A DNA stretch of 64,000 nucleotides from Phyllobates terribilis (taxonomy: Eukaryota): positions 1,150,782,001-1,150,846,000 of the forward strand of contig NW_027362761.1 in the NCBI RefSeq assembly GCF_046119375.1, in the 5' to 3' direction. Below are positions 5,698 through 61,995 of the stretch, piece after piece (position 1 is the first letter of the stretch; the number at the start of each line of letters is the position of its first letter). The translations under genes and the position numbers were made by a program. The notes below the pieces were generated by a model. The model was not told the origin of the DNA and made no database searches. It saw only the letters and a list, made by a program, of their open reading frames with translations.

Positions 5698-8600
5698 ATG
5701 GATGTGGAAATACAAATGGACAGAATTAGTGAGCTGCCTCTTCAGTTAACCTGTGAAGAATTGAGAACAGTAGCAGAACATATAAAGATGTTAGAAGAAC
5801 AGATTTCTAAAGCACACAACCACAAGCAACTGTTAGCTGCCATTAATGTAAAAATGGATGAGCTGGGGGAGAAAGAAGCTGAAGACATCATGGGGATGTT
5901 CCTCCAGGAGCTAACACAGTTTCTAACCAGGTTGAAGTTAGAGGATGGAGGGGCGGCACCAATTACCAAAAGCGGGAATCTCCGTCCGCAGACAGAACTA
6001 CAGGAATTGAAAGAACAATCAAAGCCCTAATAACAGCCCTGCAGGAATCGACCAAAACCTCTGAACGAGTGACAGATTCAGACAGAACCTTTACCTTGCT
6101 CGGGTTAGATAAATCATTAAGACAGTCCTCTCTAACACCACAAATCACCATAAGGAAAGAATTCAAGATCCTGGGACAGATTGGAGCGTGTGAACACAAA
6201 GAGAAACTGTCCTATATTAACTTGTTGCACCCGATCTATGCAGGCTTACAGAAAGGCTACCAGCCAAATGAGATCGTTGAGGGGGTGGTGAAAGCGATCA
6301 GCCCAGGACTGAACCTACGTAGTATGCTAGAAATGAAGAGTAAATTGACCTTGCAACAGCTAAAGATGATTTTAAAAGGGCACTATAAAGAAGAGAGTAC
6401 AGAATTGTTCCACCGACTCATTAACCTCTCACAAAAAAATAATGAATCACCCCAAAATTTCTTGTTTACAGCAATTGAACTGAAGGATAGACTGTTGTTT
6501 GCATCAAGAGATGTAGAAGCGGAGGAGAAGTTTGATGCTGGACTAGTCCAGAATCATAGAATCATAGAATCATAGAATCATAGAATGGTAGAGTTGGAAG
6601 GGACCTCCTGGGTCATCTGGTCCAACCCCCTGCTCAAAGCAGGATTCACTAGATCATCTCAGACAGATGTCTGTCCAGCCTCTGTTTGAAGACGTCCATT
6701 GAAGGGGAACTCACCACCTCTCGTGGCAGCCTGTTCCACTCATTAATCACCCTAACTGTCAAAAAGTTTTTTCTAATATCTAATCTGTGTCTACTCCCAT
6801 TTAGTTTCATCCCATTGCTTCTAGTCTTTCCTTGTGCAAATGAGAATAAAGATGATCCTTCTACAATGTGACAGCCCTTGACATATTTGTAGACAGCTAT
6901 TAAGTCTCCTCTCAGTCTTCTTTTTTGCAAGCTAAACATTCCCAAATCCTGCAACCGTTCCTCATAGGACATGGTTTGCAGACCAGTCACCATTCTGGTC
7001 GCTCTTCTCTGAACTTGCTCCAGTTTGTCTATGTCTTTTTTAAAATGTGGTGCCCAAAACTGTACACAGTATTCCAGATGAGGTCTGACCAAAGAGGAGT
7101 AAAGACCGATAATGACTTCACGTGATCTAGACTGTATGCTTCTGTTAATACATCCCAGAATTGTATTTGCCTTTTTTGCTGCTGCATCACACTGTTGACT
7201 CATGTTCAGTCTATGATCTATTAGTATACCTAAGTCTTTTTCACATGTACTGTTGCTTAGCTCTATTCCTCCCATTCTGTATATGCTTTTTTCATTTTTA
7301 TTGCCCAGATGTAGTACTTTGCATTTTTCCCTGTTAAAAACCATTCTGTTGGTTGCTGCCCACTGCTCCAGTTTATTTAGGTCTTTTTGAATCCTCTCTC
7401 TCTCTTCTCTAGTATTAGCTATCCCTCCTAGCTTTGTGTCATCAGCAAATTTAATCAGTTTACCCTCAATTCCTTCATCTAAATCATTGATAAAGATGTT
7501 GAACAATACAAGTCCCAGGACGGAGCCCTGTGGTACCCCACTTGAGACATTCATCCCTTTGAGTCCGATCACTAAGCCAGTTATGAATCCACCTAACAGT
7601 TGCCTGGTCCATTGCATACTTGGTCATTTTTTCAATAAGGATGGTGTGAGATACTTTGTCAAATGCTTTGCTGAAGTCAAGATATACTATATCTACAGCA
7701 TTTCCCTGATCCACCCAGTCAGTGATTCTGTCATAGAAGGAAATTAAGTTAGTCTGACATGACTTGTTAGTTACAAACCCATGCTGACTCTGATTAATCA
7801 CTTCATTCTTATCCATGTACTTACATACATGTTGTTTAATAATTTGTTCAAAGATCTTTCCTGGTATAGAAGTCAGACTCACCGGCCTATAGTTCCCTGG
7901 GTCCACCTTCTTCCCCTTTTTGAAGATAGGAACAACATTTGCTCTTCTCCAGTCTTCTGGGACTTCTCCTGTTCTCCAAGAATTTTCAAAGATTATGGAG
8001 AGTGGTTCTAAAATTTCTTCTACGATCTCCTTCAGTACTCTGGGGTGTAATTCATCTGGACCTGGAGACTTGAACTTATGTTAGCTAAATATTCCCTCAC
8101 AATCTTTCTGTTTACAGATAACTTGGATTCCTCTATTCCTTTAAAAGGACAGTGAAGATCAGTTGATGTTACATTTTCTTTCTGAGAGAAAACAGATGCA
8201 AAATAGGAATTAAAAAGTTCGGCCTTCTCAACATCCTCTCTTACCATTTCTCCATTTTCATCCTGTAAAAATCCTATAGCATCTTTGACTTTTCTTTTAC
8301 TTTTGACATACCCCCAAAATCCTTTTTTATTGCTTTTGACATCTCTTGCAAGCCTTAATTCATTGTCAGCTTTAGCTAACCTGATACGTGCCCTGCAGGA
8401 TCTGCAGACTGCATTATAATTTTCTTTAGATATGCCTCCCTCTTTCCATTTAATAAACATTTCTTTCTTTCTTTTTAGCATGTGTTTAAGTTCTGTGTTC
8501 ATCCATCCTGGTTTCCTTAAATGCTTCCCATTCTTCCTACTTTTCGGGATTGTTAACGATTGTGCTTTGAGAATCTCATTTTTAAAAATTTCCCATCCTT

Positions 8601-9696
8601 CCTGGACATTTTTGTCCTTAAGGACATCCAGCCATTGGATCCCTCCTATTCTCTTTCTGAGTCTCTTAAAATCTGCCCTTCTAAAATCTAACCTTGAAGT
8701 TTGAGTCTTCACATGTCTTCCTCCTCTAGTTATCCAAAATTCTATAATAGAATGATCGCTGCCTCCTAGGGTCCCAGCCACCTTTACCTCCTCAACCATT
8801 TCCTCCCTGTTTATAAGGATTAGATCCAAAGTAGCAGATCCCCTTGTTTTCTCCCCTACCTTTTGGAAGATAAAGTTGTCAGCAAGAGAGGATAAGAATT
8901 TGCTTGACCTGTTAGTTTTACTTGAGAGAGATTCCCAACAAATGTCTGGATAGTTGAAATCTCCCATGACCACTAAGTCATATTTTTTGGAGAACTTGGT
9001 CATTTGATACATAAAGAGTTCATCCATATCTTCAGCTTGCCCAGGTGGCCTGTAGTAAATGCCTACAATGGTGTCCTTTCCGTTGTTCTCTCCTTGTATT
9101 CTTACCCAAACAGTTTCCAGAAGTTCTTGAGATCATTGGGAACAGGAATAATCAGCAAAGACATCAAGTTGCAGCTGAAACAGTACGGAGAAGATCCTGG
9201 CATTCTGGACGATGTCCTAATTGAAAAAATGAATGAGGCAGCTAGTTTGAAGTTAGAGAGCGAACAGAAGTTAAAGAAAGGCTCTGCTCCTAAAATCACT
9301 AAAATGAGTCAGCTGAAGTTGGAGACCCACAGTGGTCAGTCCGAAGATCATCATGGAGACCCTCCAGTGCCACCTCAGAGAGGGAACCTTAAATCACCAA
9401 CAAAAGAGAGGACCGCCAGCGCTAACTGGGAGGAAGTAATAGGAGAACTGCGAGCCGAGTTGATTGAGGTGAAAAAGTTGATTCGTTCCAGGCCAGAACC
9501 TTTATCCCTCAGACCCAGGAGTGGGTTCCAGAACAGAAGATACCCAGCTTGTGAAGCTTGCCGTTCATCAAATCAAAGTACGGTGTGTGTCCACTGTCTA
9601 AGATGTGGTAAGGAAGGACATTATGCCAAGGAATGCCGATGGTCATGGTCGTTTGAGTTAAAAGACATGAGGTTGCTAGTGCCTGGCGATTGGTAA
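5698..9696 (+). pseudogene. Gypsy gag, frameshifted and interrupted by CR1 (coding parts ~5698-6553 and ~9120-9696)
   Basis: Rejoining across the CR1 gives FDAGLVQ|KFLRSLGTG. C-terminal zinc knuckle CLRCGKEGHYAKEC. Confidence 0.85.
6550..9119 (-). mobile_element. CR1 LINE, 5'-truncated (~2.57 kb), inserted in Gypsy gag
   Basis: (ATTCTATG)n tail at the left end. ORF2 pieces contain MGDFNYP, LDLIL, DFSKAFD, QGSVLG and FADD. TCCAGAA is duplicated at 6547-6553 and 9116-9122. Relative to the + copy it has a 4-nt deletion near 8078 and a ~29-nt deletion near 7558. Confidence 0.96.
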
Positions 9697-17227: not shown

Positions 17228-17527
17228 TAGTGTTGAGCGAGTATGTTCTATTAACCCTTTCGCCGAGTATGCTCGGGCCGAGCTCCGAGTATTTATAGCT
17301 GCTCGGTGATATGGTTGAATCGCTCCCGTGTGCATGATTTGCGACTGTTTGACAGTTTTATTACATGGGAGGAATGTCTATTTCTTACACATTCCTCACA
17401 TGTAATAAAGCTGTCAAACAGTTGCAAATCATGTACACGGGAGCGATTCAACCATAACACCGAGCAGCTATAAATACTCGGAGCTCGGCCCGAGCATACT
17501 CGGACAGAACATACTCGCTCAACACTA
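17228..17527. mobile_element. 300-bp fold-back hAT MITE
   Basis: Ends TAGTGTTGAGCGAG...CTCGCTCAACACTA; nearly the whole element is an inverted repeat. Perfect 8-bp TSD ATTTTTAG. Confidence 0.93.
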
Positions 17528-21819: not shown

Positions 21820-24607
21820 ATGGGAGGAAGAGAAACCAATCACAAACTAAAATGTTTTTATACAAATGCACAAAGCATGGGCAACAAACAAGGAGAATTG
21901 GAACTACTAATGCAGGAAAAGGAATATGATGTCATTGGAATCACTGAAACTTGGTGGGACGATACACATGATTGGAATAAAAGGCTAAAAGGATACAACT
22001 TATTTGCAAGAAACAGACTTGATAAACGAGGAGGAGGTGTTGCATTGTATGTTAGAAAAGCGTATATTGCACAGAGATTGAAGCTTCAGAGACTGGGAGT
22101 TCTGTGGAAACTGTTTGGGTAAGAATACAAGGAGAGAACAACGGAAAGGACACCATTGTAGGCATTTACTACAGGCCACCTGGGCAAGCTGAAGATATGG
22201 ATGAACTCTTTATGTATCAAATGACCAAGTTCTCCAAAAAATATGACGTAGTGGTCATGGGAGATTTCAACTATCCAGACATTTGTTGGGAATCTCTCTC
22301 AAGTAAAACTAACAGGTCAAGCAAATTCTTATCCTCTCTTGCTGACAACTTTATCTTCCAAAAGGTAGGGGAGAAAACAAGGGGATCTGCTACTTTGGAT
22401 CTAATCCTTATAAACAGGGAGGAAATGGTTGAGGAGGTAAAGGTGGCTGGGACCCTAGGAGGCAGCGATCATGCTATTATAGAATTTTGGATAACTAGAG
22501 GAGGAAGACATGTGAAGACTCAAACTTCAAGGTTAGATTTTAGAAAGGCAGATTTTAAGAGACTCAGAAAGAGAATAGGAGGGATCCAATGGCTGGATGT
22601 CCTTAAGGACAAAAATGTCCAGGAAGGATGGGAAATTTTTAAAAATGAGATTCTCAAAGCACAATCGTTAACAATCCCGAAAAGTAGGAAGAATGGGAAG
22701 CATTTAAGGAAACCAGGATGGATGAACACAGAACTTAAACACATGCTAAAAAGAAAGAAAGAAATGTTTATTAAATGGAAAGAGGGAGGCATATCTAAAG
22801 AAGATTATAATGCAGTCTGCAGATCCTGTAGGGCACGTATCAGGTTAGCTAAAGCTGACAATGAATTAAGGCTTGCAAGAGATGTCAAAAGCAATAAAAA
22901 AGGATTTTGGGGGTATGTCAAAAGTAAAAGAAAAGTCAAAGATGCTATAGGATTTTTACAGGATGAAAATGGAGAAATGGTAAGAGAGGATGTTGAGAAG
23001 GCCGAACTTTTTAATTCCTATTTTGCATCAGTTTTCTCTCAGAAAGAAAATGTAACATCAACTGATCTTCACTGTCCTTTTAAAGGAATAGAGGAATCCA
23101 AGTTATCTGTAAACAGAAAGATTGTGAGGGAATATTTAGCTAACATAAATGAGTTCAAGTCTCCAGGTCCAGATGAATTACACCCCAGAGTACTGAAGGA
23201 GATCGTAGAAGAAATTTTAGAACCACTCTCCATAATCTTTGAAAATTCTTGGAGAACAGGAGAAGTCCCAGAAGACTGGAGAAGAGCAAATGTTGTTCCT
23301 ATCTTCAAAAAGGGGAAGAAGGTGGACCCAGGGAACTATAGGCCGGTGAGTCTGACTTCTATACCAGGAAAGATCTTTGAACAAATTATTAAACAACATG
23401 TATGTAAGTACATGGATAAGAATGAAGTGATTAATCAGAGTCAGCATGGGTTTGTAACTAACAAGTCATGTCAGACTAACTTAATTTCCTTCTATGACAG
23501 AATCACTGACTGGGTGGATCAGGGAAATGCTGTAGATATAGTATATCTTGACTTCAGCAAAGCATTTGACAAAGTATCTCACACCATCCTTATTGAAAAA
23601 ATGACCAAGTATGCAATGGACCAGGCAACTGTTAGGTGGATTCATAACTGGCTTAGTGATCGGACTCAAAGGGTGGTTGTAAATGGCTTCACATCCAGCT
23701 GGATGAATGTCTCAAGTGGGGTACCACAGGGCTCCGTCCTGGGACCTGTATTGTTCAACATCTTTATCAATGATTTAGATGAAGGAATTGAGGGTAAACT
23801 GATTAAATTTGCTGATGACACAAAGCTAGGAGGGATAGCTAATACTAGAGAAGAGAGAGAGAGGATTCAAAAAGACCTAAATAAACTGGAGCAGTGGGCA
23901 GCAACCAACAGAATGGTTTTAACAGGGAAAAATGCAAAGTACTACATCTGGGCAATAAAAATGAAAAAAGCATATACAGAATGGGAGGAATAGAGCTAAG
24001 CAACAGCACATGTGAAAAAGACTTAGGTATACTAATAGATCATAGACTGAACATGAGTCAACAGTGTGATGCAGCAGCAAAAAAGGCAAATACAATTCTG
24101 GGATGTATTAACAGAAGCATACAGTCTAGATCACGTGAAGTCATTATCGGTCTTTACTCCTCTTTGGTCAGACCTCATCTGGAATACTGTGTACAGTTTT
24201 GGGCACCACATTTTAAAAAAGACATAGACAAACTGGAGCAAGTTCAGAGAAGAGCGACCAGAATGGTGACTGGTCTGCAAACCATGTCCTATGAGGAACG
24301 GTTGCAGGATTTGGGAATGTTTAGCTTGCAAAAAAGAAGACTGAGAGGAGACTTAATAGCTGTCTACAAATATGTCAAGGGCTGTCACATTGTAGAAGGA
24401 TCATCTTTATTTTCATTTGCACAAGGAAAGACTAGAAGCAATGGGATGAAACTAAATGGGAGGAGACACAGATTAGATATTAGAAAAAACTTTTTGACAG
24501 TTAGGGTGATTAATGAGTGGAACAGGCTGCCACGAGAGGTGGTGAGTTCCCCTTCAATGGACGTCTTCAAACAGAGGCTGGACAGACATCTGTCTGAGAT
24601 GATCTAG
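21820..24607 (+). pseudogene. CR1 ORF2 (APE endonuclease + reverse transcriptase), two frameshifts
   Basis: YTNAQS, GITETW, MGDFN, SDH, DFSKAFD, PQGSVLGP and FADD. Frameshifts near 22075 and at a T-run near 23927 (4 T here versus 5 T in the minus copy). Confidence 0.92.
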
Positions 24608-24970
24608 TGAATCCTGCTTTGAGCAGGGGGTTGGACCAGATGACCCAGGAGGTCCCTTCCAACTCTACCATTCTATGATTCTATGATTCTATGATTCTAT
24701 GGTATCGCTGTAATCGTACTGACCCGAAGAATAAAGCTGCCTTACCAATTTTACCACATGCGGAACGGCATAAAAAAAAAACCTAAAAACAATTCCTGAA
24801 TTGTTGGTTTTTGTTTATTCTGCCTCACAAAAATCAGAATAGAAAGCGATAAAAAAATGTGATGTGCCCGGAAATGGTGCCAATAAAAATGTCAACTTGT
24901 CCCTTAAAAGCCCTTACATGACTCTGTCGGCCGAAATATGTAAAAACTACAGCTCTCAAGATATGATGAT

Positions 24971-25096
24971 GTTATCTGCGTGACAGCTTGGCAAATCAGT
25001 GATGTTCATGGACGGAGACGATTTTTTGGCGCAAACAAGCCGGAACCCCGTACACGAACACGAATTTGAAATGCCGAACAAATTTGCTCCACACTA
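24971..25096. mobile_element. 126-bp hAT remnant with one recognisable terminus
   Basis: Flanked by ATGATGAT at 24963-24970 and 25097-25104. Right end ...GCTCCACACTA; the left end lacks a TIR. Confidence 0.5.
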
Positions 25097-25350
25097 ATGA
25101 TGATGCAAACACTAGTTTTTGAAAAAAAAAAGTCTTTTAGTGTGTGACAGCAGCCAAACATAAAAACCCGCTATAAATCTGGTATTGCTGTAATCGCTCC
25201 GACACGAAGAATAAAGTCATCATATCACTTATACTGCATGAGGATTGGTGTAAAAAATAAATAAAACCAATTTTTGTCCTGCTGTTGATTTGTTCATTCT
25301 GCCTCCCAAAGATTGCAGTAAGGCTCGGCGCACATTTATCCTGTACTCTA

Positions 25351-28300
25351 CGCCGAGTTCATTGGACATGACCTCACCCCATGCACGTCACTGACAGCGT
25401 GGGAAAATTCTCCTGCGCTCAGCGCTTCAGCGTGAGAATTTTCCCACGCTGTCAGTGACGTGCATGAGGTGAGCTGAGTTCATTGGACATGACCTCGGCT
25501 CATCTTTTTGCCGTCACAGCCAGACACTGAGGAGTGCAAGTATGCCTGCGCTTCTCAGTGTCTGCGGGATGACAGGCTGAATGGCAGCGTTCTGCTGCAG
25601 TCCAGCCTGTCATCTCGATGTAGCAGAGCTGGAGCCGTCGTGGGAACCATGGAAAGGTAAGGATGAGGTTGCTTTATTATTTTACTTTTATTGCAGGAGA
25701 TCGTTGGCTTCAGCTGGAATGGGCGTGACTGTAAGTATGGTTTAATTTAGAACAATAAAGAATTGTGTCTTTATTTCAATTAAAGGACTTTATTCTGGGT
25801 GTTGTGTTTTTTTAAATACTTTACTATAAATTCATGGTGGTCATGTCTAATATTGGCGTGACCCCATGAATTCCGGGCTTAGGGCCAGCTGATAATGCCA
25901 AGCTGGCCTTAACCCCTTTATTACCCAGTGAGCCACCGCACCAGGGCCCTGGATGAGTTGGGTACAGCGCCAGAAGATGGCGCTTCTATGAACGCGCCAT
26001 TTTCTAGGGCGGCTGCGGACTGCAATTTGCACCGGGGGGGGAGGGGGGCAGAAAGCTTGGGCCTCCCAGGGCTGCGGATTCCAGCTCCCAGCTGCCTAGT
26101 TGTACCTGGCTGGACACAAAAATAGGGCGAAGCCCCACGTATTTTTTTTTTTAATTATTTCATGAAATTCATGGAATAATTAAGAAAAAAAGGGCTTCCC
26201 TATATTGTTGTGTCCAACCAGGTACAAATAGGCAGCTGGTGGTTGGGGGCAGCCCGTTCCTGCCTGCTGTACCTGGCTGGACGCAAATATAGTGCGAAGC
26301 CCCACGTCAATTTTTTTTAAATTATTTCAGGAAATTCATGAAATAATTAAAAAAAAATTATGTGGGGCTTCGCCCTATATTTGTGTCCAGTCAGGTACAG
26401 CAGGCAGGAACGGGCTGCGCCCAACCAACAGCTACCTATTTGTACCTGGCCGGATACAACAATATAGGGAAGCCCTTTTTTTCTTAATTATTCCATGAAT
26501 TTCATGAATTTAAAAAAAAAAATACGTGGAGCTTCGCCCTATTTTTGTGTCCAGCCAGGTACAACTAGGCAGCTGGGGGCTGGAATCTGCAGCGCAGGGA
26601 GGCCCAAGCTTTCTGGGCCCCACGCGCTGCAAATTGCAGTCCGCAGCCGCCCCGGAAAATGGCGCGTTCATAGAAGCGCCATCTTCTGGCGCTGTACCCA
26701 ACTCATCCAGGGCCCTGGTGCGGTGGCTCACTGGGTAATAAAGGGGTTAAGGCCAGCTTGGCATTATCAGCAGGCCCTAAGCCCGAAATTCATGGGGTCA
26801 CGCCAATATTAGACATGACCACCATGAATTTCTAGTAAAGTATTTAAAAAAAACACAAACACCCAGAAAAAAGTCCTTTAATTGAAATAAAGACACAATT
26901 CTTTATTGTTCTAAATTAAACCATACTTACCGTCACGCCCATTCCAGCTGAAGCCAACGATCTCCTGCAATAAAAGTAAAATAATAAAGCAACATCATCC
27001 TTACCTTTCCATGGCTCCCACGACAGCTTCAGCTCTGCTACATCGAGATGACAGGCTGGACCGCAGCAGAACGCTGCCATCCATCCTGTCATCCCGCAGA
27101 CACTGAGAAGCACAGGCATGCTTCAACTCCTCAGTGTCTGGCTGTGACGGCATCCAGATGAGCCGAGGTCATGTCCAATGAACTCGGCGCACCTCATGCA
27201 CGTCACTGACAGCGTGGGAAAATTCTCACGCTGAAGCGCTGAGTGCAGGAGAATTTTCCCACGCTGTCAGGGACGTGCATGAGGTGAGCTGAGTTCATTG
27301 GACATGACCTCACCTCATGTATGTCACTGACAGCGTGGGAGAATTCTCACGCTGAAGCGCTGAGTGCAGGAGAATTTTCCCACGCTGTCAGTGACGTGCA
27401 TGAGGTGAGCCAAGTTCATTGGACATGACCTCGGCTCATCTTTATGCCGTCACAGCCTGATACTGAGGAGCGCAAGCATGCCTGCGCTTCTCAGTGTCTG
27501 CGGGATGACAGTCTGGATGGCAGCGTTCTGCTGCGGTCCAGCCTGTCATCTCGATGTAGCAGAGCTGAAGCTGTCCTGGGAACCATGGAAAGGTAAGGAT
27601 GATGTTGCTTTATTATTTTTCTTTTATTGCAGGAGATCGTTGGCTTCAGCTGGAATGGGCGTGACGGTAAGTATGGTTTAATTTAGAACAATAAAGAATT
27701 GTGTCTTTATTTCAATTAAAGGACTTTTTTCTGGGTGTTTGTGTTTTTTTTAAATACTTTACTAGAAATTCATGGTGGTCATGTCTAATATTGGCGTGAC
27801 CCCATGAATTTCGAGCTTAGGGCCAGCTGATAATGCCAAGCTGGCCTTAACCCCTTTATTACCCAGTGAGCCACCGCACCAGGGCCCTGGATGAGTTGGG
27901 TACAGCGCCAGAAGATGGCGCTTCTATGAACGCGCCATTTTCCGGGGCGGCTGCGGACTGCAATTTGCACCGGGGGGGGGCAGAAAGCTTGGGCCTCCCT
28001 GCGCTGCAGATTCCAGCCCCCAGCTGCCTAGTTGTACCTGGCTGGACACAAAAATAGGGCGAAGCCCCACGTATTTTTTTTTTAAATTATTTCATGAAAT
28101 TCATGGAATAATTAAGAAAAAAAGGGCTTCCCTATATTGTTGTGTCCGGCTAGGTACAAATAGGCAGCTGGTGGTTGGGGGCAGCCCGTTCCTGCCTGCT
28201 GTACCTGACTGGACACAAATATAGGGCGAAGCCCCACATCAATTTTTTTTAATTATTTCATGAATTTCCTGAAATAATTTAAAAAAAATTGACGTGGGGC

Positions 28301-28613
28301 TTCGCACTATATTTGTGTAGAGCCATGTACAGCAGGCAGGAACGGGCTGCCCCCAACCACCAGCTGCCTATTTGTACCTGGTTGGACACAACAATAAAGG
28401 GAAGCCCTTTTTTTCTTAATTATTCCATGAATTTCATGAAATAATTAAAAAAAAAAAAACGTGGAGCTTCTCCCTATTTTTGTGTCCAGCCAGGTACAAC
28501 TAGGCAGCTGGGGGATGGAATCTGCAGCGCAGGGAGGCCCAAGGTTTCTGCTCCCCCCCCCACTGAAAATTGCAGTCCGCAGCCGCCCCAGAAAATGGCG
28601 CGTTCATAGAAGC
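25351..28613. repeat. Fold-back (alternating inverted) array: three full ~0.95-kb arms plus a partial fourth, with hairpin junctions
   Basis: Arm forward 25375-26330, reverse 26338-27286, forward 27311-28260, reverse partial 28270-28613. Junction hairpins at ~25420, 26334, 27238, 27359 and 28265. Confidence 0.95.
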
Positions 28614-28699
28614 TGGATGCTGTACCTGGCTGGCATACAAAAATATGGCGAAGCCCACGTCAAAAGTTTTGGGAAAAATTAATTAAAAAATAAATAATA

Positions 28700-30957
28700 A
28701 TTTAGGGACTACATCTTTATTAACTCCTCAAATGTCATTTAGTGTTAAAATAAAGGATTTATTTAAAAAAAAAAATGGCGTGGGATCCCCCATAATTTTA
28801 GTCTCTAGCGGAGGTTAAGCAGACGGCTGGGGCAGATGTTTCAAGCCTGGGAAGGGGGTAAAACCCACGGAGCTTCCCAGGCTACTAATATCAGCCCCCA
28901 GCTGAATACCTAGCCTTTAATAGCTATTAAAATGGGGGACCCCCCCCCAAAAAAATGACGTGGGGTCCCCCCTCTTTTAATAGCTAGCAAAGGCTAGGCA
29001 GACAGCTGGGGGCTGATATTAATAGCCCAGGAAGGGTGCCATGAATAATGGCCCCCTCCCAGGCTAGAAACACCAGCCATCAGCCGCCCCAGAAATGGCG
29101 CATCCATATGATGCGCCAATTCTGGCACTTAGCCTCGCTCTTCCACGCTGCCCTGGTGCGGTGGCAGGGGGTAATAGTGGTGGGGTTCATGTCAGCGCCA
29201 GCTGCCATGAAGCCCAGGTTAGTAATGATGGGCGTCTATAAGACACCCCCATTACTAACCTACAAAGTGTTGAAAAGAAAAAACACACTACACCCAGAAA
29301 AAAATAATTTATTTGAAATAAAACAGACCATTTTATTTAATTCTTAGTTTACTAAAAATAATAGTTACCTGTCCACGTTCCTGCGCTGATCTCCCATGCA
29401 CAGCTGTCACATCTGGAGATGGTGACAGCTGTGCATGGCTGCTGTAAGCTCACGCTGCCGGGAACACGTCCGCTCCCGGCAGCGGGAGCCCCTGACTGAG
29501 GTCACCGGAGTGCATTCAGTCAGCGCAACTCCGGAGACCTCCCTTATGGCAGTGCTGTACCGTGGGAATTTCTCACGATACAGCAGGGCCGTAAAGGAGC
29601 TAACCGGAGCAGCGCTGCCTGAACTCCGGCGAACCCTTACGGCCCCGTCATTCTAGCGGCGGCAGCGGTTCAGAGCGGTCACATTCTATGTGGCTGCTCT
29701 GAACTGGAGATCTTCGTGGGACACTCGTGGACTACTACGGAGGGGTAAGGATAAGGTTGTGGTTTATTATTTTATATTTTATTACAGGAGATCGATGGCT
29801 TCGGGGAATTAGGTGTCTAGGTGAGTATAGGTGTAGTTTTTTATTTTTTACTTTATTTTAGGTGGCGATCGGCGGGGACAGGTAATGTATGAACTAATTT
29901 ATTGTAGGTAACCACTGGCCACCAATGACATGTATTTAAAATTTATTGGGGCACAGTAGGGCAATTTAAATAGCAGGATCAGGCTGATGGGAACTACTGC
30001 TCCCATCGAGCTGATCCTGCTGGCACGAGTGGACGGGGGACAGACATAGGCCGATGGGAGTAGTAGTGTCACATCGGCCTATATCTGCCTGCACGCACAC
30101 ACCCGCACACATCGCAGACACCGCGCACACCCTCGCAGACATCGCACAGACACCGCACACGTCGCACAGACACCGCGCACACCCGCACACACCCACAAAC
30201 ATCGCACAGACCCGCAGACACCGTACAGACACCCCACACACCCGCACACACCCGCAGACATCGCACACACACCCCGCACACACACGCGCACACACACTAA
30301 TCATGACCGGTCTGATGGTCTGGGAGGTGAGGCTGACCTGTGCGGCCGTGGGAAAGTTCATGTGAGTTCATGCAATGCAGTCAAGCATGAACTCACATGA
30401 ACCCTCTGAGGGCACCGCAGCTACTTCAAATGAACAGCTGATCGGCATCACCTGATACCTCAGCTGTTCATTTGAAATAACTGGCGGGAGAGCGCAGCAC
30501 AGAACGGGAAAGCCGGCGGTGAAGTCTTTTCACTGCCGGCTTCCCCGCCCGGGTCCTTCGCTCCCCGCTCCTTGGTGCTGCGCTCCCCGCCCGGTCCTAA
30601 CTTACGATCGGGATGGGAGGTGGCGAGGGGAGCGGAGGATCGGGGTGGGAGGCTGCGGGGAAGCAGTATGGGGCTGTGTGATTGTTTAAAAGCCGGCGGC
30701 TTTTTACCGCGCGCCGGCTTTTAAACAATCAGGAGAATTCTCCCCCGCTGGGATGGCATTCTGATGACAGGCTGGATCTCAGCTGAGCGCTGCCATCCAG
30801 CTTGTCATCCTTCACAGACACTGCAGAGCGCAGGCATTATGGGAACTTCCGATTCCGGTATTCGATATTGTAAAAGTATCGGAATTAAGTATCGGAATTC
30901 CGATACCGCGAATATCGGCCGATACCCGATATTTCAGTATCGGAATGCTCAACACTA
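28700..30957. mobile_element. Hairpin-rich non-autonomous hAT element body and right terminus
   Basis: Contains a diverged paralogue of the fold-back arm (CCGCCCCAGAAATGGCGC...CCCTGGTGCGGTGGC...CACCCAGAAAAAA). Many local hairpins and CCGATAC/GTATCGG subterminal repeats; ends ...GCTCAACACTA at 30957. No left end or TSD found. Confidence 0.6.
30090..30300. repeat. CA-rich degenerate microsatellite (CACACCGCAGACATCG-like)
   Basis: Direct inspection. Confidence 0.8.
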
Positions 30958-31241
30958 CTGTTTACTCAAGATATCTTGCTGATTAAAGCTCTCGTAAGTA
31001 CAGTGGTGACTGTAAGAAGATGCACTCTGCGACAGGCTTTTGTGCTTTTTTTTGATCAGGAACAGTGTTTACTAAGTGCCCTATGTTATTTATATGTATT
31101 ATTACATTTTACTTAGAAGCAAGATATTTGCCCATTTTGCTTCCATATAAAAAATATATTAATGTACCTACAACTATAAAATCAAACCAAAAGATAAAAA
31201 CACAGCACATTATTTCTCTTTCAATGACTAACCTTTATTAA

Positions 31242-35157: not shown

Positions 35158-35170
35158 CAGACCGATACTA

Positions 35171-36860
35171 CAACCCCTGGCAAAAATTATGGAATCACCG
35201 GGCTCTGAGGATGTTCATTCAGTTTTTTAATGTTGTTGAAAAAAAGCAGATCACAGACATGGCACAAAACTAAAGTCATTTCAAATGGCAACTTTAGGGC
35301 TTTAAGAAACACTAAAAGAAATCAAGATAAAAAATCTTACTCAGTAAGGGTAATTTTTTTCAGACCAAGCAGAGGGAAAAAATTATGGAATCACTCAATT
35401 CTGAGGAAAAAATTATGGACTCACCCTGTAAATTTCATTTCCAAAACTAACACCTGCATCAAATTAGATCTGCTCGTTAGTCTGCATCTAAAAAGGAGTG
35501 ATCACACCTTGGAGAGCTGTTGCACCAAGTGGACTGACATGAATCATAGCTCCAACACAAGAGATGTCAATTGAAACAAAGGAGAGGATTATCAAACTCT
35601 TAGAAGAAGGTATATCATCATGCAATGTTGCAAAAGATGTTGGTTGTTCACAGTCAGCTGTGTCTAAAATCTGGACCAAATACAAACAACATGGGAAGGT
35701 TGTTAAAGGCAAACATACTGGTAGACCAAGGAAGACATCAAAGCGTCAAGACCGGAAACTTAAAGCAATATGTCTCCAAAACAGGAAATGCACAACAAAA
35801 CAAATGAGGAACGAATGGGAGGAAACTGGAGTCAATGTCTGTGACCGAACTGTAAGAAATGCCAAAAGGAAATGGGATTTACATACAGAAAAGCTAAACA
35901 TAAGCCATCATTAACACCTAAATAGAAAAAAACAAGGTTACAATGGGCTAAGGAAAAGCAATCGTGGACTGTGGATGACTGGATGAAAGTCATATTCAGT
36001 GATGAATCGCGAATCTGCATTGGGCAAGGTGATGATGCTGGAACTTTTGTTTGGTGCCGTTCCAATGAGATTTATAAAGATGACTGCATGAAGAGAACAT
36101 GCAAATTTCCACAGTCATTGATGATATGGGGCTGCATGTCAGGTAAAGGCACTGGGGAGATGGCTGTCATTACATCTTCAATAAATGCCCAAGTTTACAT
36201 TGATATTTTCGACAGTTTTCTTATCCCATCAATTGAAAGGATGTTTGGGGATGATGACATCATTTTTCAAGATGATAATGCATCCTGCCATAGAGCAAAA
36301 ACTGTGAAAACATTCCTTGAAAGAAGACACATAAGGTCAATGTCATGGCCTGGAAATAGTCCAGATCTCAATCCAATTGAAAATCTTTGGTGGAAGTTGA
36401 AGAAAATAGTCCATGACAAGGCTCCAACCTGCAAAGCTGATCTGGCAACAGCAATCATAGAAAGTTGGAGCCAGATTGACGAAGAGTACTGTTTGTCACT
36501 CATTAAGTCCATGCCTCAGAGACTGCAAGCTGTTATTAAAGCCAGAGGTGGTGCAACAAAATACTAGTGATGTATTGGAGTGTTCTTTTGTGTGTTTGTT
36601 TTACATGATTCCATAATTTTTTCCTCAGAATTGAGTGATTCCATAATTTTTTCCCTCTACTTGGTCTGAAAAAAATTACCCTTACTGAGTACCACATTTT
36701 TTATCTTGATTTCTTTTAGTGTTTCTTAAAGCCCTAAAGTTGCCATTTGAAATAACTTTAGTTTTGTGCCATGCCTGTGATCTGCTTTTTTTCAACAACA
36801 TTAAACAACTGAATGAACATCCTCCGAGCCCGGTGATTCCATAATTTTTGCCAGGGGTTG
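35171..36860 (+). mobile_element. Full-length Tc1 (DD34E) element, 1690 bp, transposase broken
   Basis: ~260-bp TIRs starting CAACCCCTGGCAAAAATTATGGAATCAC with three internal direct repeats; TA on both sides. ORF pieces 35564-35914 and 35971-36567 carry FSDES, QDDN and SPDLNPIE (D-34-E), separated by a frameshift and a stop. Confidence 0.96.
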
Positions 36861-37474
36861 TATTAAAACCCCATGACAGTTGGGGGAAATTTTTTAAATT
36901 TTGCACGAGGACCCCTAAACTTAATGTTGAAATTTGCTCCTGAAAAGAAGTGAGAGAACTGCAGCAGCTTCCCCCCAGAATCTATCCCTTATCTATCCTC
37001 ACACACCCATTCCATAACCTTTCTGTATTACTATAAACATTCATTTTCTGCCTGACTTGTGCCCGTTGCGGGATGGCATAATGCAGCCATTGTCTACCTA
37101 TGTTGTTGCTACTAGTTAATTGCAATCAATGAGGATAATCTTAAATTGTAGGTTCTTAGAATGGTTGCATGTTGTGAAATCTCTTGTTCCTTGAATCAAG
37201 AATAGATGTGGAGAAAAAACGCGAAACATGAGTCTTTCTCTTAATAAACCTGGACCTGCTTACTGAAATGACCCAGACTATATAATTGTAATACGATACA
37301 AAGCACTATGAGCCACACATACTGTATACGTGATGTGAAAAAAAACAATTCAATGAATAGCTTTCTATGTGATGAATAACTGGTTAAGTAGTCGTAAATG
37401 TCAGCAGTAATTGTGAGGTGAAGAACCAACCCAAACACTCATTTTTCAAATAAACAAATTTGCAGACAGAGAGC

Positions 37475-40085: not shown

Positions 40086-40091
40086 AGAGTA

Positions 40092-41260
40092 CAGGTGCAT
40101 CTCAGTAAATTAGAATATCATAAAAAAGTGAATTTATTTCAGTTCTTCAATACAAAAAGTGAAACTCATATATTATATAGAGTCATTACAAACAGAGTGA
40201 TCTATTTCAAGTGTTTATTTCTATTAATGTTGATGATTATGGCTTACATCCAATGAAAACACAAAGGTCATTATCTCAGTAAATTAAAATATTAACAAAA
40301 AAAAACCTGCAAAGGCTTCCTAAGCGTTTAAAAAGGTCCCTTAGTCTGTTTCAGTAGGCTCCACAATCATGGGGAAGACTGCTGACTTGACAGATGTCCA
40401 GAAGGCAGTCATTGACACACTCCAGAAGGTCCCAGAGTTCCAATTTTCATTTGGAAATCAAGGTCCCAGAGTCTGGAGGAAGAGTGGAGAGGCCACAATC
40501 CAAGCTGCTTGAGGTCTAGTGTGAAGTTTCCACAATCATTGATGGTTTGGGGAGCAATGTCATCTGCTGGTGTAGGTCCACTGTGTTTTATCAAGACCAA
40601 AGTCAGCGCAGCCGTCTCTAGAGCACTTCATGCTTCCCTCTGCCGACAAGCTTTTTAGAGATGGAAATGTCATTCTCCAGCAGGACTTGGCACCTGTCCA
40701 CACTGCCAAAAGTACCAATACCTGGTTTACAAACAACAGTATCACTGTGCTTGATTGGCAGCAAACTCACCTGACCATAACCCCATAGAGAATCTATTAT
40801 AGAGAATCTATGGGGTGTTGTCAAGAGGAAGATGAGAGACATGAAACCCAACAATGCAGACGAGCTGAAGGCTGCTATCAAAGCCACCTGGGCTTCCATA
40901 ACACCTCAGCAGTGCCACAGGCTGATCACCTCCATGCCACATTGATGCAGTAATTGATGCAAAAGGAGCCCTGAGCAAGTATTGAGTGCATTTACTGAAC
41001 ATACATTTCAGTACACCAACGTTTCGGTTTTTAAAAACATTTTTCAAGCTGTTGTTATAAAGTATTCTAATTTATTGAGATAATGACTTTTGTGTTTTCA
41101 TTGGCTGTAAGCCATAATCATCAACATTAACAGAAATAAACACTTGACATAGATCACTCTGTTTGTAATGACTCTATATAATATGAGTTTCACTTTTTGT
41201 ATTGAAGAACTGAAATAAATTAACTTTTTGATGATATTCTAATTTACTGAGATGCACCTG
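40092..41260 (+). mobile_element. Internally deleted Tc1 element (1169 bp)
   Basis: TIRs CAGGTGCATCTCAGTAAATTAGAATATCAT (~190 bp). C-terminal transposase remnants, e.g. FQQDLAPVH and AVIDAKGA. Confidence 0.9.
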
Positions 41261-41702
41261 TGTGTTTCCCACAAAGTGCATTTCCACACATGTATGATGC
41301 TATTACAACATTTTGATGTTAGAGTATCACCTACAAAGTATGATGTCCCCACAGGGTCTCTTACAATGTGATGCCCCATAATGCTGTGAAGTCACCGGCA
41401 GCTATATCAAAGAGGCAGAAGTTCCAAGCTCAATGGACTGCTCCTCAATCATAAATAGCTTAATTCTGAGAGAGTTGGTGTTAGCATAGTGCCAGAACTC
41501 ACAGACTTACTACTATACAACTAAAGCGATCATTTCGACACATTAGACATTTTTGGATCTGGAAGGTCTGGGAGATATCTATATGTAGAAGTGATCAATT
41601 TTACTGACCAGAAATTATTGATTTAGAGTCTGCACTGTTTATTCCTGTCACTTACCAGTAACACATATCTATGGACATTTTATACTGACTGAATGTCTTT
41701 AA

Positions 41703-49020: not shown

Positions 49021-49278
49021 TTGTGGGGACTACTAATGAGAAGAGGCAACGGGGATAAGTAGTCGAAGGTTTGCAGTCCATCGGCCATGAACTACCGACA
49101 TTGATGCATTGCTGACATAGATGCTGGATTAGGGTTCTGCAAATATTTTTTGCTCAATTCTACTAAGAATATTAAAACAAAACACATTGCCCCAAGGCAG
49201 AATCACATAAGTGTCGGGCAATCCCTCTAAAAGTATCATTATTAAAAATAATTTTTAAAAGATTTTATAAAACACATA

Positions 49279-50878
49279 CAGTACAGACCAAACGTTTGGA
49301 CACACCTTCTCATTTAAAGATTTTTCTGTATTTTCATGACTTTGAATATTGTACATTCACACTGAAGACATCAAAACTATGAATCAACACATGTCGAATT
49401 ATAAAAAGTATGAAACAACTGAAAATATGTCTTATATTCTAGGTTCTTCAAAGTAGCCACCTTTTGCTTTGATGACTGCTTTGCACACTCTTGGCATTCT
49501 CTTGATGAGCTTTAAGAGGAAGTCACCAGAAATGGTTTTCACTTCACAGGTGTGCCTTGTCAGGTTTAATAAGTGGGATTTCTTGCCTTATAAATGGGGT
49601 TGGGACCATCAGTTGTGTTGTGCAGAAGTCAGGTGGATACACAGCTAATAGTCCTACGGAATAGACTGTTATAATTTGTATTATGGCAAGAAAAAAGCAA
49701 CTAAGTAAAGAAAAACGAGTGCCCATCATTACTTTAAGAAATGATGTTCAGTCAGTCCAAAAAATTGGGAAAACTTTGAATGTGTCCCCAAGTGCAGTTG
49801 CAAAAACCATCAAGCGCTACAAAGAAACTGGCTCACATGAGGCCCGCCCCAGGAAAGGAAGACCAAGAGTCACCTCTGCTTCTGAGGATAAGTTTATCTG
49901 AGTCACCAGCCTCAGAAATCGCAGTTTAACAGCAGCTCAGATTAGAGACCAGGTCAATGCCACACAGAGTTCTAGCAGCAGACACGTCTCTACAACAACT
50001 GTTAAGAGGAGACTTTGTGCAGCAGGCCTTCATGGTAAAATAGCTGCTAGGAAATCACTGCTAATGACAGGCAACAAGCAGAAGATACTTGTATGGGCTA
50101 AAGAACACAAGGAATGGACATTAGACCAATGGAAATCTGTGCTTTGGTCTGATGAGTCCAAATTTGAGATCTTTGGCTCCAACCACCATGTCTTTGTGCG
50201 ATGCAGAAAAGGTGAACGGATGGACTCTACATGACTGGTTTCCACCGTGAAGCATGGAGGAGGAGGTGTGATAGTGTGGGGGTGCTTTTCTGGTGACACT
50301 GTTGGGGATTTATTCAAAATTGAAGGCATACTGAACCAGCATGGCTACCACAGCATCTTGCAGCGGCATGCTATTCCATCCGGTTTGCGTTTAGTTGGAC
50401 CATCATTTATTTTTCAATAGGACAATGAACCCAAACACAGCTCCAGGTTGTGTAAGGGCTATTTGACCAAGAAGGAGAGTGATGGGGTGCTACGCCAGAT
50501 GACCTGGCCTCCACAGTCACCAGACCTGAACCCAATCGAGATGGTTTGGGGTGAGCTGGACCGCAGAGTGAAGGCCAAAGGGCCAACAAGTGCTAAGCAT
50601 CTCTGGGAAGACCATTTCCGGAGACTACCTCTTGAAGCTCATCATGAGAATGCCAAGAGTGTGCAAAGCAGTCATTAAAGCAAAAGGTGGCTACTTTGAA
50701 GAACCTAGAATATAAGACATATTTTCAGTTGTTTCACACTTTTTTGTTAAGTATATAATTCCACATGTGTTAATTCATAGTTTTGATGCCTTCAGTGTGA
50801 ACGTACAATTTTCATAGTCAAGAAAATACAGAAAAATCTTTAAATGAGAAGGTGTGTCCAAACTTTTGGTCTGTACTG
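49279..50878 (+). mobile_element. Full-length decayed Tc1 element (1600 bp)
   Basis: ~200-bp TIRs CAGTACAGACCAAA(C/A)GTTTGGACACACCTTCTCATTTAAAG; TA flanks. Transposase from 49683 (MARKKQLSKE...WSDESKFE...SPDLNPIE) with stops. Confidence 0.95.
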
Positions 50879-51377
50879 TATATGTAAACTAGTGTTGAGC
50901 CACCCCCGTAGTGTTCGAGTTCGGTTCGTCGAACACCCGTGTGTTCGCCGAACTGTTCGTCGAACACCTTCGAACACCGTTAAAACCAATGGCAGGCAAA
51001 CAAAAACACATAGAAACACATAGAAAACACCTTCAAAGGTGTCCAAAATCTGACAAACTGCTCAGAAGACACAACTAACACATGGAAAAGTGACAAGTAC
51101 ATATAGTCATGCGAAAATAAAAGAGGTGGAGGAGTAAAAGGAGGGGGAGACACAGATATAGGCATGTCATGCCCTTCTAAAATCCAAAAAGTGAGAAGCC
51201 GACACGGCCAGTCCGCTCCTGCCCGTGCCACCTCCGTGTCGCCGGGTTTGTGCCAGAGCCGCGGTGAACCCTGATGGCCAGCCCCCCTCTCCCAATACTG
51301 GTGCCTGTCCGCTGGTGGGTCGAGCGAGCCCCCCTGTGGTGGAGGCAGCTCTAAGCTTTTTAATTTAAATTGTCTCT

Positions 51378-59050: not shown

Positions 59051-59166
59051 TTTGGTGGTTAACTAATTCACAACTCTGGAGTTGTTTGCACAAAAAAACA
59101 ATGGATGGTAACCGAGCAGAGCTGAGTGGCCAAACTGTGGTATTAGGCCAAAACTATTGGCTGGGT

Positions 59167-61995
59167 TAGATGCAGAAAAAAATTATTTTGAATTTGCAAC
59201 CTGATGGAGGTCAGTATAGATGGACTAATACAACAAGTCCCACACACAGCTAGAAGCCCAAATATTTTTTCAGAGGTACTGTAGATACAGATAAAAATTA
59301 GTTTTAATTTGCAACCTGATGGAGGTCAGTATAGATGGACTAATAGAGAAAGTCCGACACACTACTAGAAGGCCAAATATTTTTTCAGAGGTAGATGCAG
59401 AAAAAAATATATTCAGTTTGCAACCTGATGGAGGTCAGTATAGATGGATTAATAGAACAAGACCCACACACAGCTAGAAGCCCAATATTTTTTCAGAGGT
59501 AGATGCAGAAAAAACTATATTCAGTTTGCAACCTGATGGAGGTCAGTATAGATGGACTAATAGAACAAGTCCCACACACTGCTAGAAGCCCAAATATTTT
59601 TTCAGAGGTACTGTAGATGCAGATAAAAATTATTTTTAATTTGCAACCTGATGGAGGTCAGTATAGATGGACTAATAGAGAAAGTCCGACACACTACTAG
59701 AAGGCCAAATATTTTTTCAGAGCTAGATGCAGAAAAAAATTATATTCAGTTTGCAACCTGATGGAGGTCAGTATAGATGGACTAATAGAGAAAGTCCGAC
59801 ACACTACTAGAAGTCCAAATATTTTTTCAGAGGTAGATGCAGAAAAAAATATATTCAGTTTGCAACCTGATGGAGGTCAGTATAGATGGACTAATAGAAC
59901 AAGTCCCACACACTGCTAGAAGCCCAAATATTTTTTCAGAGGTACTGTAGATGCAGATAAAAATTAGTTTTAATTTGCAACCTGATGGAGGTCAGTATAG
60001 ATGGACTAATAGAGAAAGTCCGACACACTACTAGAAGGCCAAATATTTTTTCAGAGATAGATGCAGAAAAAAATATATTCAGTTTGCAACCTGATGGAGG
60101 TCAGTATAGATGGATTAATAGAACAAGACCCACACACAGCTAGAAGCCCAATATTTTTTCAGAGGTAGATGCAGAAAAAAAAATATTCAGTTTGCAACCT
60201 GATGGAGGTCAGTATAGATGGATTAATAGAACAAGACCCACACACAGCTAGAAGCCCAATATTTTTTCAGAGGTAGATGCAGAAAAAACTATATTCAGTT
60301 TGCAACCTGATGGAGGTCAGTATAGATGGACTAATAGAACAGGTCCCACACACTGCTAGAAGCCCAAATATTTTTTCAGAGGTACTGTAGATGCAGATAA
60401 AAATTATTTTTAATTTGCAACCTGATGGAGGTCAGTATAGATGGGCTAATAGAGAAAGTCCGACACACTACTAGAAGGCCAAATATTTTTTCAGAGCTAG
60501 ATGCAGAAAAAAATTATATTCAGTTTGCAACCTGATGGAGTTCAGTATAGATGGACTAATAGAGAAAGTCCGACACACTACTAGAAGGCCAAATATTTTT
60601 TCAGAGGTAGATACAGAAAAAAATATATTCAGTTTGCAACCTGATGGAGGTCAGTATAGATGGACTAATAGAACAAGTCCCACACACTGCTAGAAGCCCA
60701 AATATTTTTTCAGAGGTACTGTAGATGCAGATAAAAATTAGTTTTAATTTGCAACCTGATGGAGGTCAGTATAGATGGACTAATAGAGAAAGTCCGACAC
60801 ACTACTAGAAGGCCAAATATTTTTTCAGAGGTAGATGCAGAAAAAAATATATTCAGTTTGCAACCTGATGGAGGTCAGTATAGATGGATTAATAGAACAA
60901 GACCCACACACAGCTAGAAGCCCAATATTTTTTCAGAGGTAGATGCAGAAAAAAATATATTCAGTTTGCAACCTGATGGAGGTCAGTATAGATGGACTAA
61001 TAGAGAAAGTCCGACACACTACTAGAAGGCCAAATATTTTTTCAGAGGTAGATGCAGAAAAAAATATATTCAGTTTGCAACCTGATGGAGGTCAGTATAG
61101 ATGGACTAATAGAACAAGTCCCACACACTGCTAGAAGCCCAAATATTTTTTCAGAGGTACTGTAGATGCAGATAAAAATTAGTTTTAATTTGCAACCTGA
61201 TGGAGGTCAGTATAGATGGACTAATAGAGAAAGTCCGACACACTACTAGAAGGCCAAATATTTTTTCAGAGGTAGATGCAGAAAAAAATATATTCAGCTT
61301 GCAACCTGATGGAGGTCAGTATAGATGGATTAATAGAACAAGACCCACACACAGCTAGAAGCCCAATATTTTTTCAGAGGTAGATGCAGAAAAAAATATA
61401 TTCAGTTTGCAACCTGATGGAGGTCAGTATAGATGGATTAATAGAACAAGACCCACACACAGCTAGAAGCCCAATATTTTTTCAGAGGTAGATGCAGAAA
61501 AACTATATTCAGTTTGCAACCTGATGGAGGTCAGTATAGATGGACTAATAGAGAAAGTCCGACACACTACTAGAAGGCCAAATATTTTTTCAGAGCTAGA
61601 TGCAGAAAAAAATTATATTCAGTTTGCAACCTGATGGAGGTTAGTATAGATGGACTAATAGAGAAAGTCCGACACACTACTAGAAGGCCAAATATTTTTT
61701 CAGAGGTAGATGCAGAAAAAAATATATTCAGTTTGCAACCTGATGGAGGTCAGTATAGATGGATTAATAGAACAAGACCCACACACAGCTAGAAGCCCAA
61801 TATTTTTTCAGAGGTAGATGCAGAAAAAACTATATTCAGTTTGCAACCTGATGGAGGTCAGTATAGATGGACTAATAGAACAAGTCCCACACACTGCTAG
61901 AAGCCCAAATATTTTTTCAGAGGTACTGTAGATGCAGATAAAAATTAGTTTTAATTTGCAACCTGATGGAGGTCAGTATAGATGGACTAATAGAA
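59167..61995. repeat. Tandem array of 25 full 108-115-bp units in three variants, inside the hAT element upstream of the transposase
   Basis: Near-constant block TTTGCAACCTGATGGAGGTCAGTATAGATGGA(C/T)TAATAGA followed by variant a (109-110 bp), b (108 bp) or c (115 bp). Confidence 0.97.

Follow-up and report, generated by a model that had tools for sequence, protein, structure and literature searches.

A palindromic array in the Phyllobates terribilis genome as the probable inherited interior of a non-autonomous hAT transposon

The array of alternating inverted arms found in a 64,000-nucleotide stretch of the Phyllobates terribilis genome (hereafter the window, with positions counted from its first letter) is probably the inherited palindromic interior of a non-autonomous hAT transposon, whose inverted middle arm likely arose once, through two template switches in an ancestral copy. 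An earlier interpretation, referred to here as the sequence-only reading, had proposed a non-coding, hAT-associated element that grows by repeated hairpin-primed strand switching. We identified related copies throughout the genome, and compared their ends, arms and junctions with those in the window.

The array and the transposon around it

The surviving element begins with a small spacer hairpin, s (25352-25378, plus strand), its left end and TIR (~2 kb) being missing. This is followed by hairpin H1 (25373-25473), with a ~40-bp stem and a loop (25413-25433) in minus orientation, as in the genomic copy L003; by arm A1 (25434-26329, plus), which has the arm-1 haplotype of L002/L003 and switches near C1 to the haplotype of the inverted partial arm; and by the C1 loop (26330-26338, minus), which is the reverse complement of C2 and the centre of nested A/T-rich hairpins, with minor hairpins of this kind at 26144-26190 and 26477-26523. 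Arm A2 (26339-27227, minus) is the inverted copy of the triplication. It is separated by a 121-bp unit (27228-27369, plus), consisting of the H2 loop (27228-27248), a spacer s and the H3 loop (27349-27369), from arm A3 (27370-28260, plus), the haplotype of which is that of the L001 arm and of the last arm in L002, L003 and L004. The C2 loop (28261-28269, plus) and A4, a 344-bp partial inverted arm 'a' (28270-28613, minus) that is part of the basic one-arm element, complete the array.

The alternation of ~0.95-kb arms (plus, minus, plus and partial minus) described by the sequence-only reading was confirmed, the four arms differing pairwise by 3.3-7.7%, and all the motifs that it quoted were recovered in place. 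The C loop motifs are GGAAATTCA at 26330 and TGAATTTCC at 28261, one hairpin being an inverted copy of the other, and the H loops lie at 25413 (H1), 27228 (H2) and 27349 (H3, 121 nt after H2), with both loop types present in flip and flop orientation. Self-BLAST of the window returned two overlapping palindromes of about 94% identity, at 25373-27288 (1.9 kb, 93.7%) and 25982-28613 (2.6 kb, 94.1%), with E = 0. Folding energies of the H1, H3 and C2 hairpins range from -47 to -52 kcal/mol (z -13 to -17), and none of 200 shuffles folded as well. The doubling of the 121-bp H and spacer unit had been placed after the inversion, an order that we could not support; clusters of one to four H are also present in one-arm copies, and the doubling therefore need not postdate the inversion.

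We searched the source genome (10.57 Gb) with a 541-bp piece of A3, which gave 891 candidates, of which 40 were scored, and examined the 38 loci around these. The examined loci reach a common left end, and the right end that is seen in the window at 30957. These copies, termed family A, have an 11-bp TIR at both ends, and an exact 8-bp TSD in all 22 copies with both ends (18 independent sites). TIRs together with an 8-bp TSD are a hallmark of hAT elements, and the proposed hAT association was thus borne out. In the window, the right part of the transposon, R, occupies 28614-30957 (plus), including a segment (28733-29337) that, once inverted, is 89% similar to the left part; an inverted copy of the first 160 bp of R is present in the three-arm parent form. 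R ends in the 11-bp right TIR (30947-30957, minus), followed by the right copy of the expected 8-bp TSD (30958-30965, plus), the left copy having been lost with a deletion.

The simplest copy, L029 (5.0 kb), consists of the left end, an older inverted arm that is 79% like A3, H, an arm, C, a partial arm of 345 bp in inverted orientation, R and the right end. A3, C2, A4 and R of the window have the same layout, and thus constitute the basic element. The three-arm parent of the window copy reads left end, H, arm 1, an insert of inverted R160, partial arm, C and arm 2, then H, arm 3, C, partial arm and R. Both one-arm and three-arm forms have transposed intact, each with 8-bp TSDs. The older 79% arm around H, and the partial arm around C (92-96%), support the earlier suggestion that H and C are recurrent inversion pivots.

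The element contains only short frames, 14 in the interval 25300-31000 (stop-to-stop, 80-133 aa), and the three longest-looking of these have no Pfam match, in agreement with its description as non-coding. No Rfam family was matched at the gathering threshold; the 30 matches with E <= 0.1 are all to miRNA hairpin models and all sub-threshold. By eye, we noted donor- and acceptor-like motifs (GTAAG, a pyrimidine run, then AG) ~40-50 nt apart at 25656-25740 and 29745-29830, possibly remnants of leader exons.

On its left side, the window copy was truncated when a deletion joined the small spacer hairpin, at its foot, to another repeat. The flank (24700-25351) is an unrelated dispersed repeat, joined to the element with ~6 nt of microhomology (GC[C/T]GAG), and five relatives differ from the window in the sequence past this junction. 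Neither a left TIR nor a left TSD of this copy was found within the whole window.

Several features link the window copy to L002 and L003. The alleles diagnostic for arms 1, 2 and 3 of these two copies are found in its own arms; its R part is sister to that of L002, which has three arms and the insert (support 99/84), in a tree of 42 family-A rows with more than 1 kb of R, L003 and L006 being among those left out; and its surviving token string is the right part of that of L003, loop orientations included, save one insert. Thus, the flips in the window are inherited. The stem variants, which the sequence-only reading had seen split 2:2 on a diagonal, are present as stated: AGTGCGAAG at 26291, its reverse complement lying at 28300, CCAACCAGG at 26214 and 28377, AGGGCGAAG at 28223 and 26368, and CCTGACTGG at 28204 and 26387. 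This pattern is explained by a crossover in A1, likely between ~26175 and 26293 (three homopolymer-side sites disagree), through which A1 acquired the partial-arm haplotype near C1 as the insert was lost, although the CCAACC variant was already common to arm 1 and the partial arm in L002/L003.

Genomic copies and a sister family

The H-loop motif has 40,599 exact matches in the genome, and the A4-R (a-R) junction 9,308. We classified all 52 loci behind the first 100 of the H matches, assigning 17 to family A (nine one-arm, two one-arm with a remnant insert, five three-arm and one five-arm) and 35 to a second family, B (four without an arm, eight one-arm and 23 two-arm); these arm counts use a 30-nt motif, miss mutated copies, and wrongly label one locus (L037) as having none. 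Scaled from 52 loci per first 100 matches, there would be roughly 21,000 H-motif loci, of which about 7,200 would belong to family A. As a rough product with lengths of 3-8 kb, H-motif loci amount to ~1% of the genome, many with kb-scale arms of 92-97% identity. Copies vary in arm number, as had been anticipated, with one-, three- and five-arm forms in family A. One fixed structure throughout the genome, which the sequence-only reading would have taken for a single ancient event, was not what we found.

Family B has other termini, with an 8-bp TSD of at most one mismatch at 33 of 38 loci, the remaining five lacking the other end or a match, and its elements are almost palindromic over their whole length. 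It carries the same core as family A, inverted wholesale in some copies. An assignment of the palindromic two-arm copies to family A, as elements with two left ends, was rejected, as these belong to a second family with two different ends. Seven family-B loci (L041, L042, L063, L075, L083, L084 and L089) carry one arm and then ~2 kb unlike all four query parts, constituting a further core variant. We additionally noted elements lying head to head or adjoining (L034:8863-8872, L085/L086 and L069), with two left ends 8 bp apart in L034 that share a TSD-like spacer.

Eight of 18 hAT-transposase loci match the family-B end over their first 149 bp (92-95% identity), and an element with a family-B-like end contains a 1237-aa ORF with BED and hAT-dimer domains. 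No autonomous element with the family-A end was found among the 18 loci, beyond a TIR-like motif, nor were the far ends and TSDs of seven autonomous-looking hAT copies. A transposase acting in trans, likely the BED-finger hAT of this genome, may have spread the element forms. Loci L091-L102 carry numerous hAT frames (820-1237 aa) in which BED and dimer domains are present, and point to a young family of autonomous hAT elements in the genome.

Formation of the inverted arm

In most three-arm copies, arm 1 is separated from the inverted C by an insert in which both the partial arm and the first 160 bp of R are present as inverted copies. The inverted-R piece is joined by one and the same T-run microhomology junction, ~14 nt before the centre of C, in all 19 family-A loci that carry it. 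Among the first 100 A4-R junction matches, 16 of 77 loci have a matching junction pair 2.4-2.8 kb apart, and seven have shorter pairs (hand count). The arms run forward, inverted and forward, as in an inverted triplication, with an H-cluster (inverted repeat) junction on one side and the T-run microhomology junction on the other. One junction of each kind is a described route by which DUP-TRP/INV-DUP arrangements form, in the part of PMC11293582 drawn on here, and the erosion of ODIRA products via new direct repeats has likewise been described (PMC10766186, in part).

The junctions point to template switching as the formation route. In this scheme, stalling of a polymerase at the C hairpin foot would have been followed by a jump, at the T-run microhomology, onto the opposite strand ~520 nt further on; the polymerase would then have copied back as far as the H cluster and switched a second time, through the H inverted repeat, possibly during fork restart or in gap repair after excision. 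Later recombination or slippage between direct repeats could then account for loss of the R160 insert (in the window and L016), for the collapse of other copies to a single arm, and for five-arm forms through doubling of the two-arm unit, and exchange between inverted repeats could have flipped the 20-nt loops and, in the sister family, the whole core. The first event is visible through its products only, and similar junctions also result from folding back at H, from a switch of the ODIRA type or from crossing over between two copies. The tree of R needs nine changes for the three-arm-plus-insert label, its deep forks being weak, so that the case for a single origin depends on the junction that these loci have in common, and such a junction could arise more than once.

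Loss of the insert is seen among five duplicates of one insertion with flanks in common (L010, L014, L015, L016 and L026), where L016 alone lost it, by a single clean crossover in the arm interval 791-829; the A1 crossover in the window is less clean. These five loci, on contigs C12 and C65, belong to a large segmental or tandem duplication, or are haplotigs, and repeated insertions with flanks in common were likewise seen in L012/L032/L033/L035/L036 and in L011/L025/L030.

The array shares with the DUP-TRP/INV-DUP and ODIRA systems (PMC11293582, PMC10766186, PMC13334657, each in the portions that concern such products) its forward-reverse-forward order, its pair of junction types, and its later erosion by recombination between new direct repeats. 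It differs from these in lying inside a mobile element, in its size of ~0.9-1.4 kb, and in having been transposed to ~1,500 copies (scaled from the 16 of 77 loci).

The inverted arm could alternatively derive from ectopic recombination or conversion between two element copies in opposite orientation, as proposed for Galileo, although we consider this improbable. Arms 1 and 2 are 2.27% apart, and differ from arm 3 by 2.73-2.97%, and two donor copies may therefore be involved; arm 3 also groups with basal one-arm copies (92/77), the arm haplotypes are mosaic, families A and B have a common core under different ends, and chimeric Galileo copies have been explained in this way (PMC3573991, in part). 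However, homology at one junction is limited to a short T-run microhomology instead of a long match, and such a junction needs replicative switching or end joining. The idea moreover overlaps with template switching, our preferred explanation, in which gap repair could proceed from an ectopic donor.

The mechanism favoured by the sequence-only reading, in which the array grows in situ through rolling-hairpin synthesis or repeated fold-back, with H or C as the site at which every new arm is copied off the adjacent one, is less probable still. In its favour, the flipped H and C of the window would both be expected after two self-templated fold-backs in succession, the H and C hairpins are strong and have been inversion centres at several ages, and the alternating concatemers of AAV show mixed ITR orientation (PMC11575299). 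Under fold-back copying, a new arm is expected to be identical to its inverted neighbour. However, across 131 arms at 52 multi-arm loci, 128 had their nearer match in an arm from a different locus (median 0.61%), the inverted neighbour being more distant (median 2.54%), and the nearest arm was in the same orientation for 122 of 131. The three exceptions are arms 1 and 2 of L006, only 0.6% apart, and arm 3 of L058. In a tree of 57 arms, built from 16 three-arm and nine basal loci after removal of four paralogous duplicates, four changes are needed for the labels (arm 1, arm 2, arm 3 and basal), versus 31 in shuffles. The arm 2 sequences of the subfamily of the window group weakly with arm 3 in this tree, and this, with the three exceptions, indicates that some local copying or conversion occurs.

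In the five-arm copies L018 and L082, arms of the same orientation differ by 0.0-0.6%, and opposite arms by 1.8-3.7%, indicating that the five arms are a direct tandem duplication of a two-arm unit. The flips of the window, moreover, are the same as those of L003; the ends of the element are hAT TIRs with a TSD in chromosomal DNA, not hairpins; and among its 14 short frames, of which three were scanned against Pfam without a match, no Rep/HUH nickase was found. We therefore reject in-place fold-back growth, since arm ancestry follows position, the five-arm forms are direct duplications and neighbours are not sisters, and rolling-hairpin replication at this locus is already largely refuted. The likeness to parvovirus rolling-hairpin concatemers, as these appear in the relevant part of PMC11575299, lies in alternating units and flip/flop junctions, and is real but not diagnostic; the array differs from these in having no hairpin termini, no Rep-type frame found, and neighbours that are not sister copies.

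An assembly or fold-back read artefact, to which long inverted repeats are prone, can practically be dismissed, for although no record in four runs (short-read contigs, too short) spans the whole array, its arms are several per cent apart, identically ordered haplotypes recur on other chromosomes with their own TSDs, and an 87-nt contig of sequencing run X1, which may be the assembled sample, crosses the locus-specific left junction with zero differences.

Loop orientation and related systems

The H loops counted were 161 in plus and 138 in minus orientation, with one unclear; all eight isomers of the H-spacer-H unit were found, and 36 cluster strings, the cluster counts leaving out seven loci without an assigned family. 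In family B, five loci match others better with the whole core inverted against the ends (0.9-1.3% versus 3.6-4.0%). Thus, inversion between inverted repeats acts from 20 nt to several kb, since H loops and family-B cores both flip. Template switching between short inverted repeats is known to invert spacers (PMC8604942, in part), and flip/flop loops are therefore not diagnostic of the rolling-hairpin process; such junctions in raw sequence are no evidence of it. The shared feature with spacer inversion as that source presents it is a loop between short inverted arms in both orientations, and the difference is that here all eight isomers of a two-hairpin cluster occur, across transposon copies.

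Loop orientation differs between separately inserted relatives that are ~1% apart (L002, L003 and L001), whereas the five duplicates of one insertion have two deletions and no loop flips. This contrast gives a hint, which we consider speculative and on balance unlikely to hold, that strand switching is programmed to take place at the H and C hairpins, where it would be driven by every round of hAT excision with its gap repair, so that the element is remodelled as it jumps. Such a process would cover the loop flips, core inversion, changes in arm number and swaps of ends between families. Were it true, a self-diversifying system of palindromic transposons would make up ~1% of a vertebrate genome, and its thousands of copies would be a natural record of the rates of inverted triplication and spacer inversion.

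Short TIRs, an 8-bp TSD and the absence of a coding frame are shared with Ds-like non-autonomous hAT elements, as is the presence in the same genome of an autonomous-looking BED-finger hAT, which has a terminus in common with sister family B. The elements described here differ from the Ds-like type in their length of 3-8 kb, nested hairpins and kb-scale inverted arms, numbering from zero to five, and in that two families with different ends carry one core. Tandem and inverted repeats also ride within a non-autonomous amphibian DNA transposon in the case of Xstir/Xmix, a likeness compared by description only, although these are of TTAA type with short units, unlike the hAT core here. The Xstir/Xmix T2-MITE repeats of Xenopus are named in PMC9659126 and PMC2872659, as far as the relevant parts of these go.

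Foldback-type elements (Galileo, PMC3573991, in part; FB; and Tetris) have similarly long, internally repetitive inverted repeats and structural variation among copies, with internal sequence recruited as inverted duplicates and chimeric copies, and a comparable structural dynamism is described for Galileo. Galileo belongs to the P superfamily, with a 7-bp TSD and long TIRs, whereas the TIRs here measure 11 bp, and long inverted repeats are confined to the interior. The mechanisms involved are known, and the family looks undescribed: we found no description of a hAT family with such architecture in the literature, Repbase and Dfam lying outside this search, so that it may already be catalogued. 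Long inverted repeats with short spacers are unstable and rare in genomes, in the sections of PMC10766186 used here. The family could serve to measure the rates at which loops flip and inverted triplications form and erode, and to establish whether these events follow transposition.

We additionally noted other repeats in the window. Two inverted copies of a 2.6-kb repeat, 98.3% identical and 13 kb apart, lie at 6555-9119 and 22105-24701, and presumably represent the 3' part of a CR1-type LINE with a short tandem tail. A tandem array of ~110-bp units, 86-95% alike and with higher-order periods, occupies 59145-61995. Finally, other palindromic elements, or inverted ends of 200-280 bp, were identified at 314-626, 17228-17527, 35166-36865, 40091-41261 and 49272-50885, and palindromic non-autonomous elements are common within the window.
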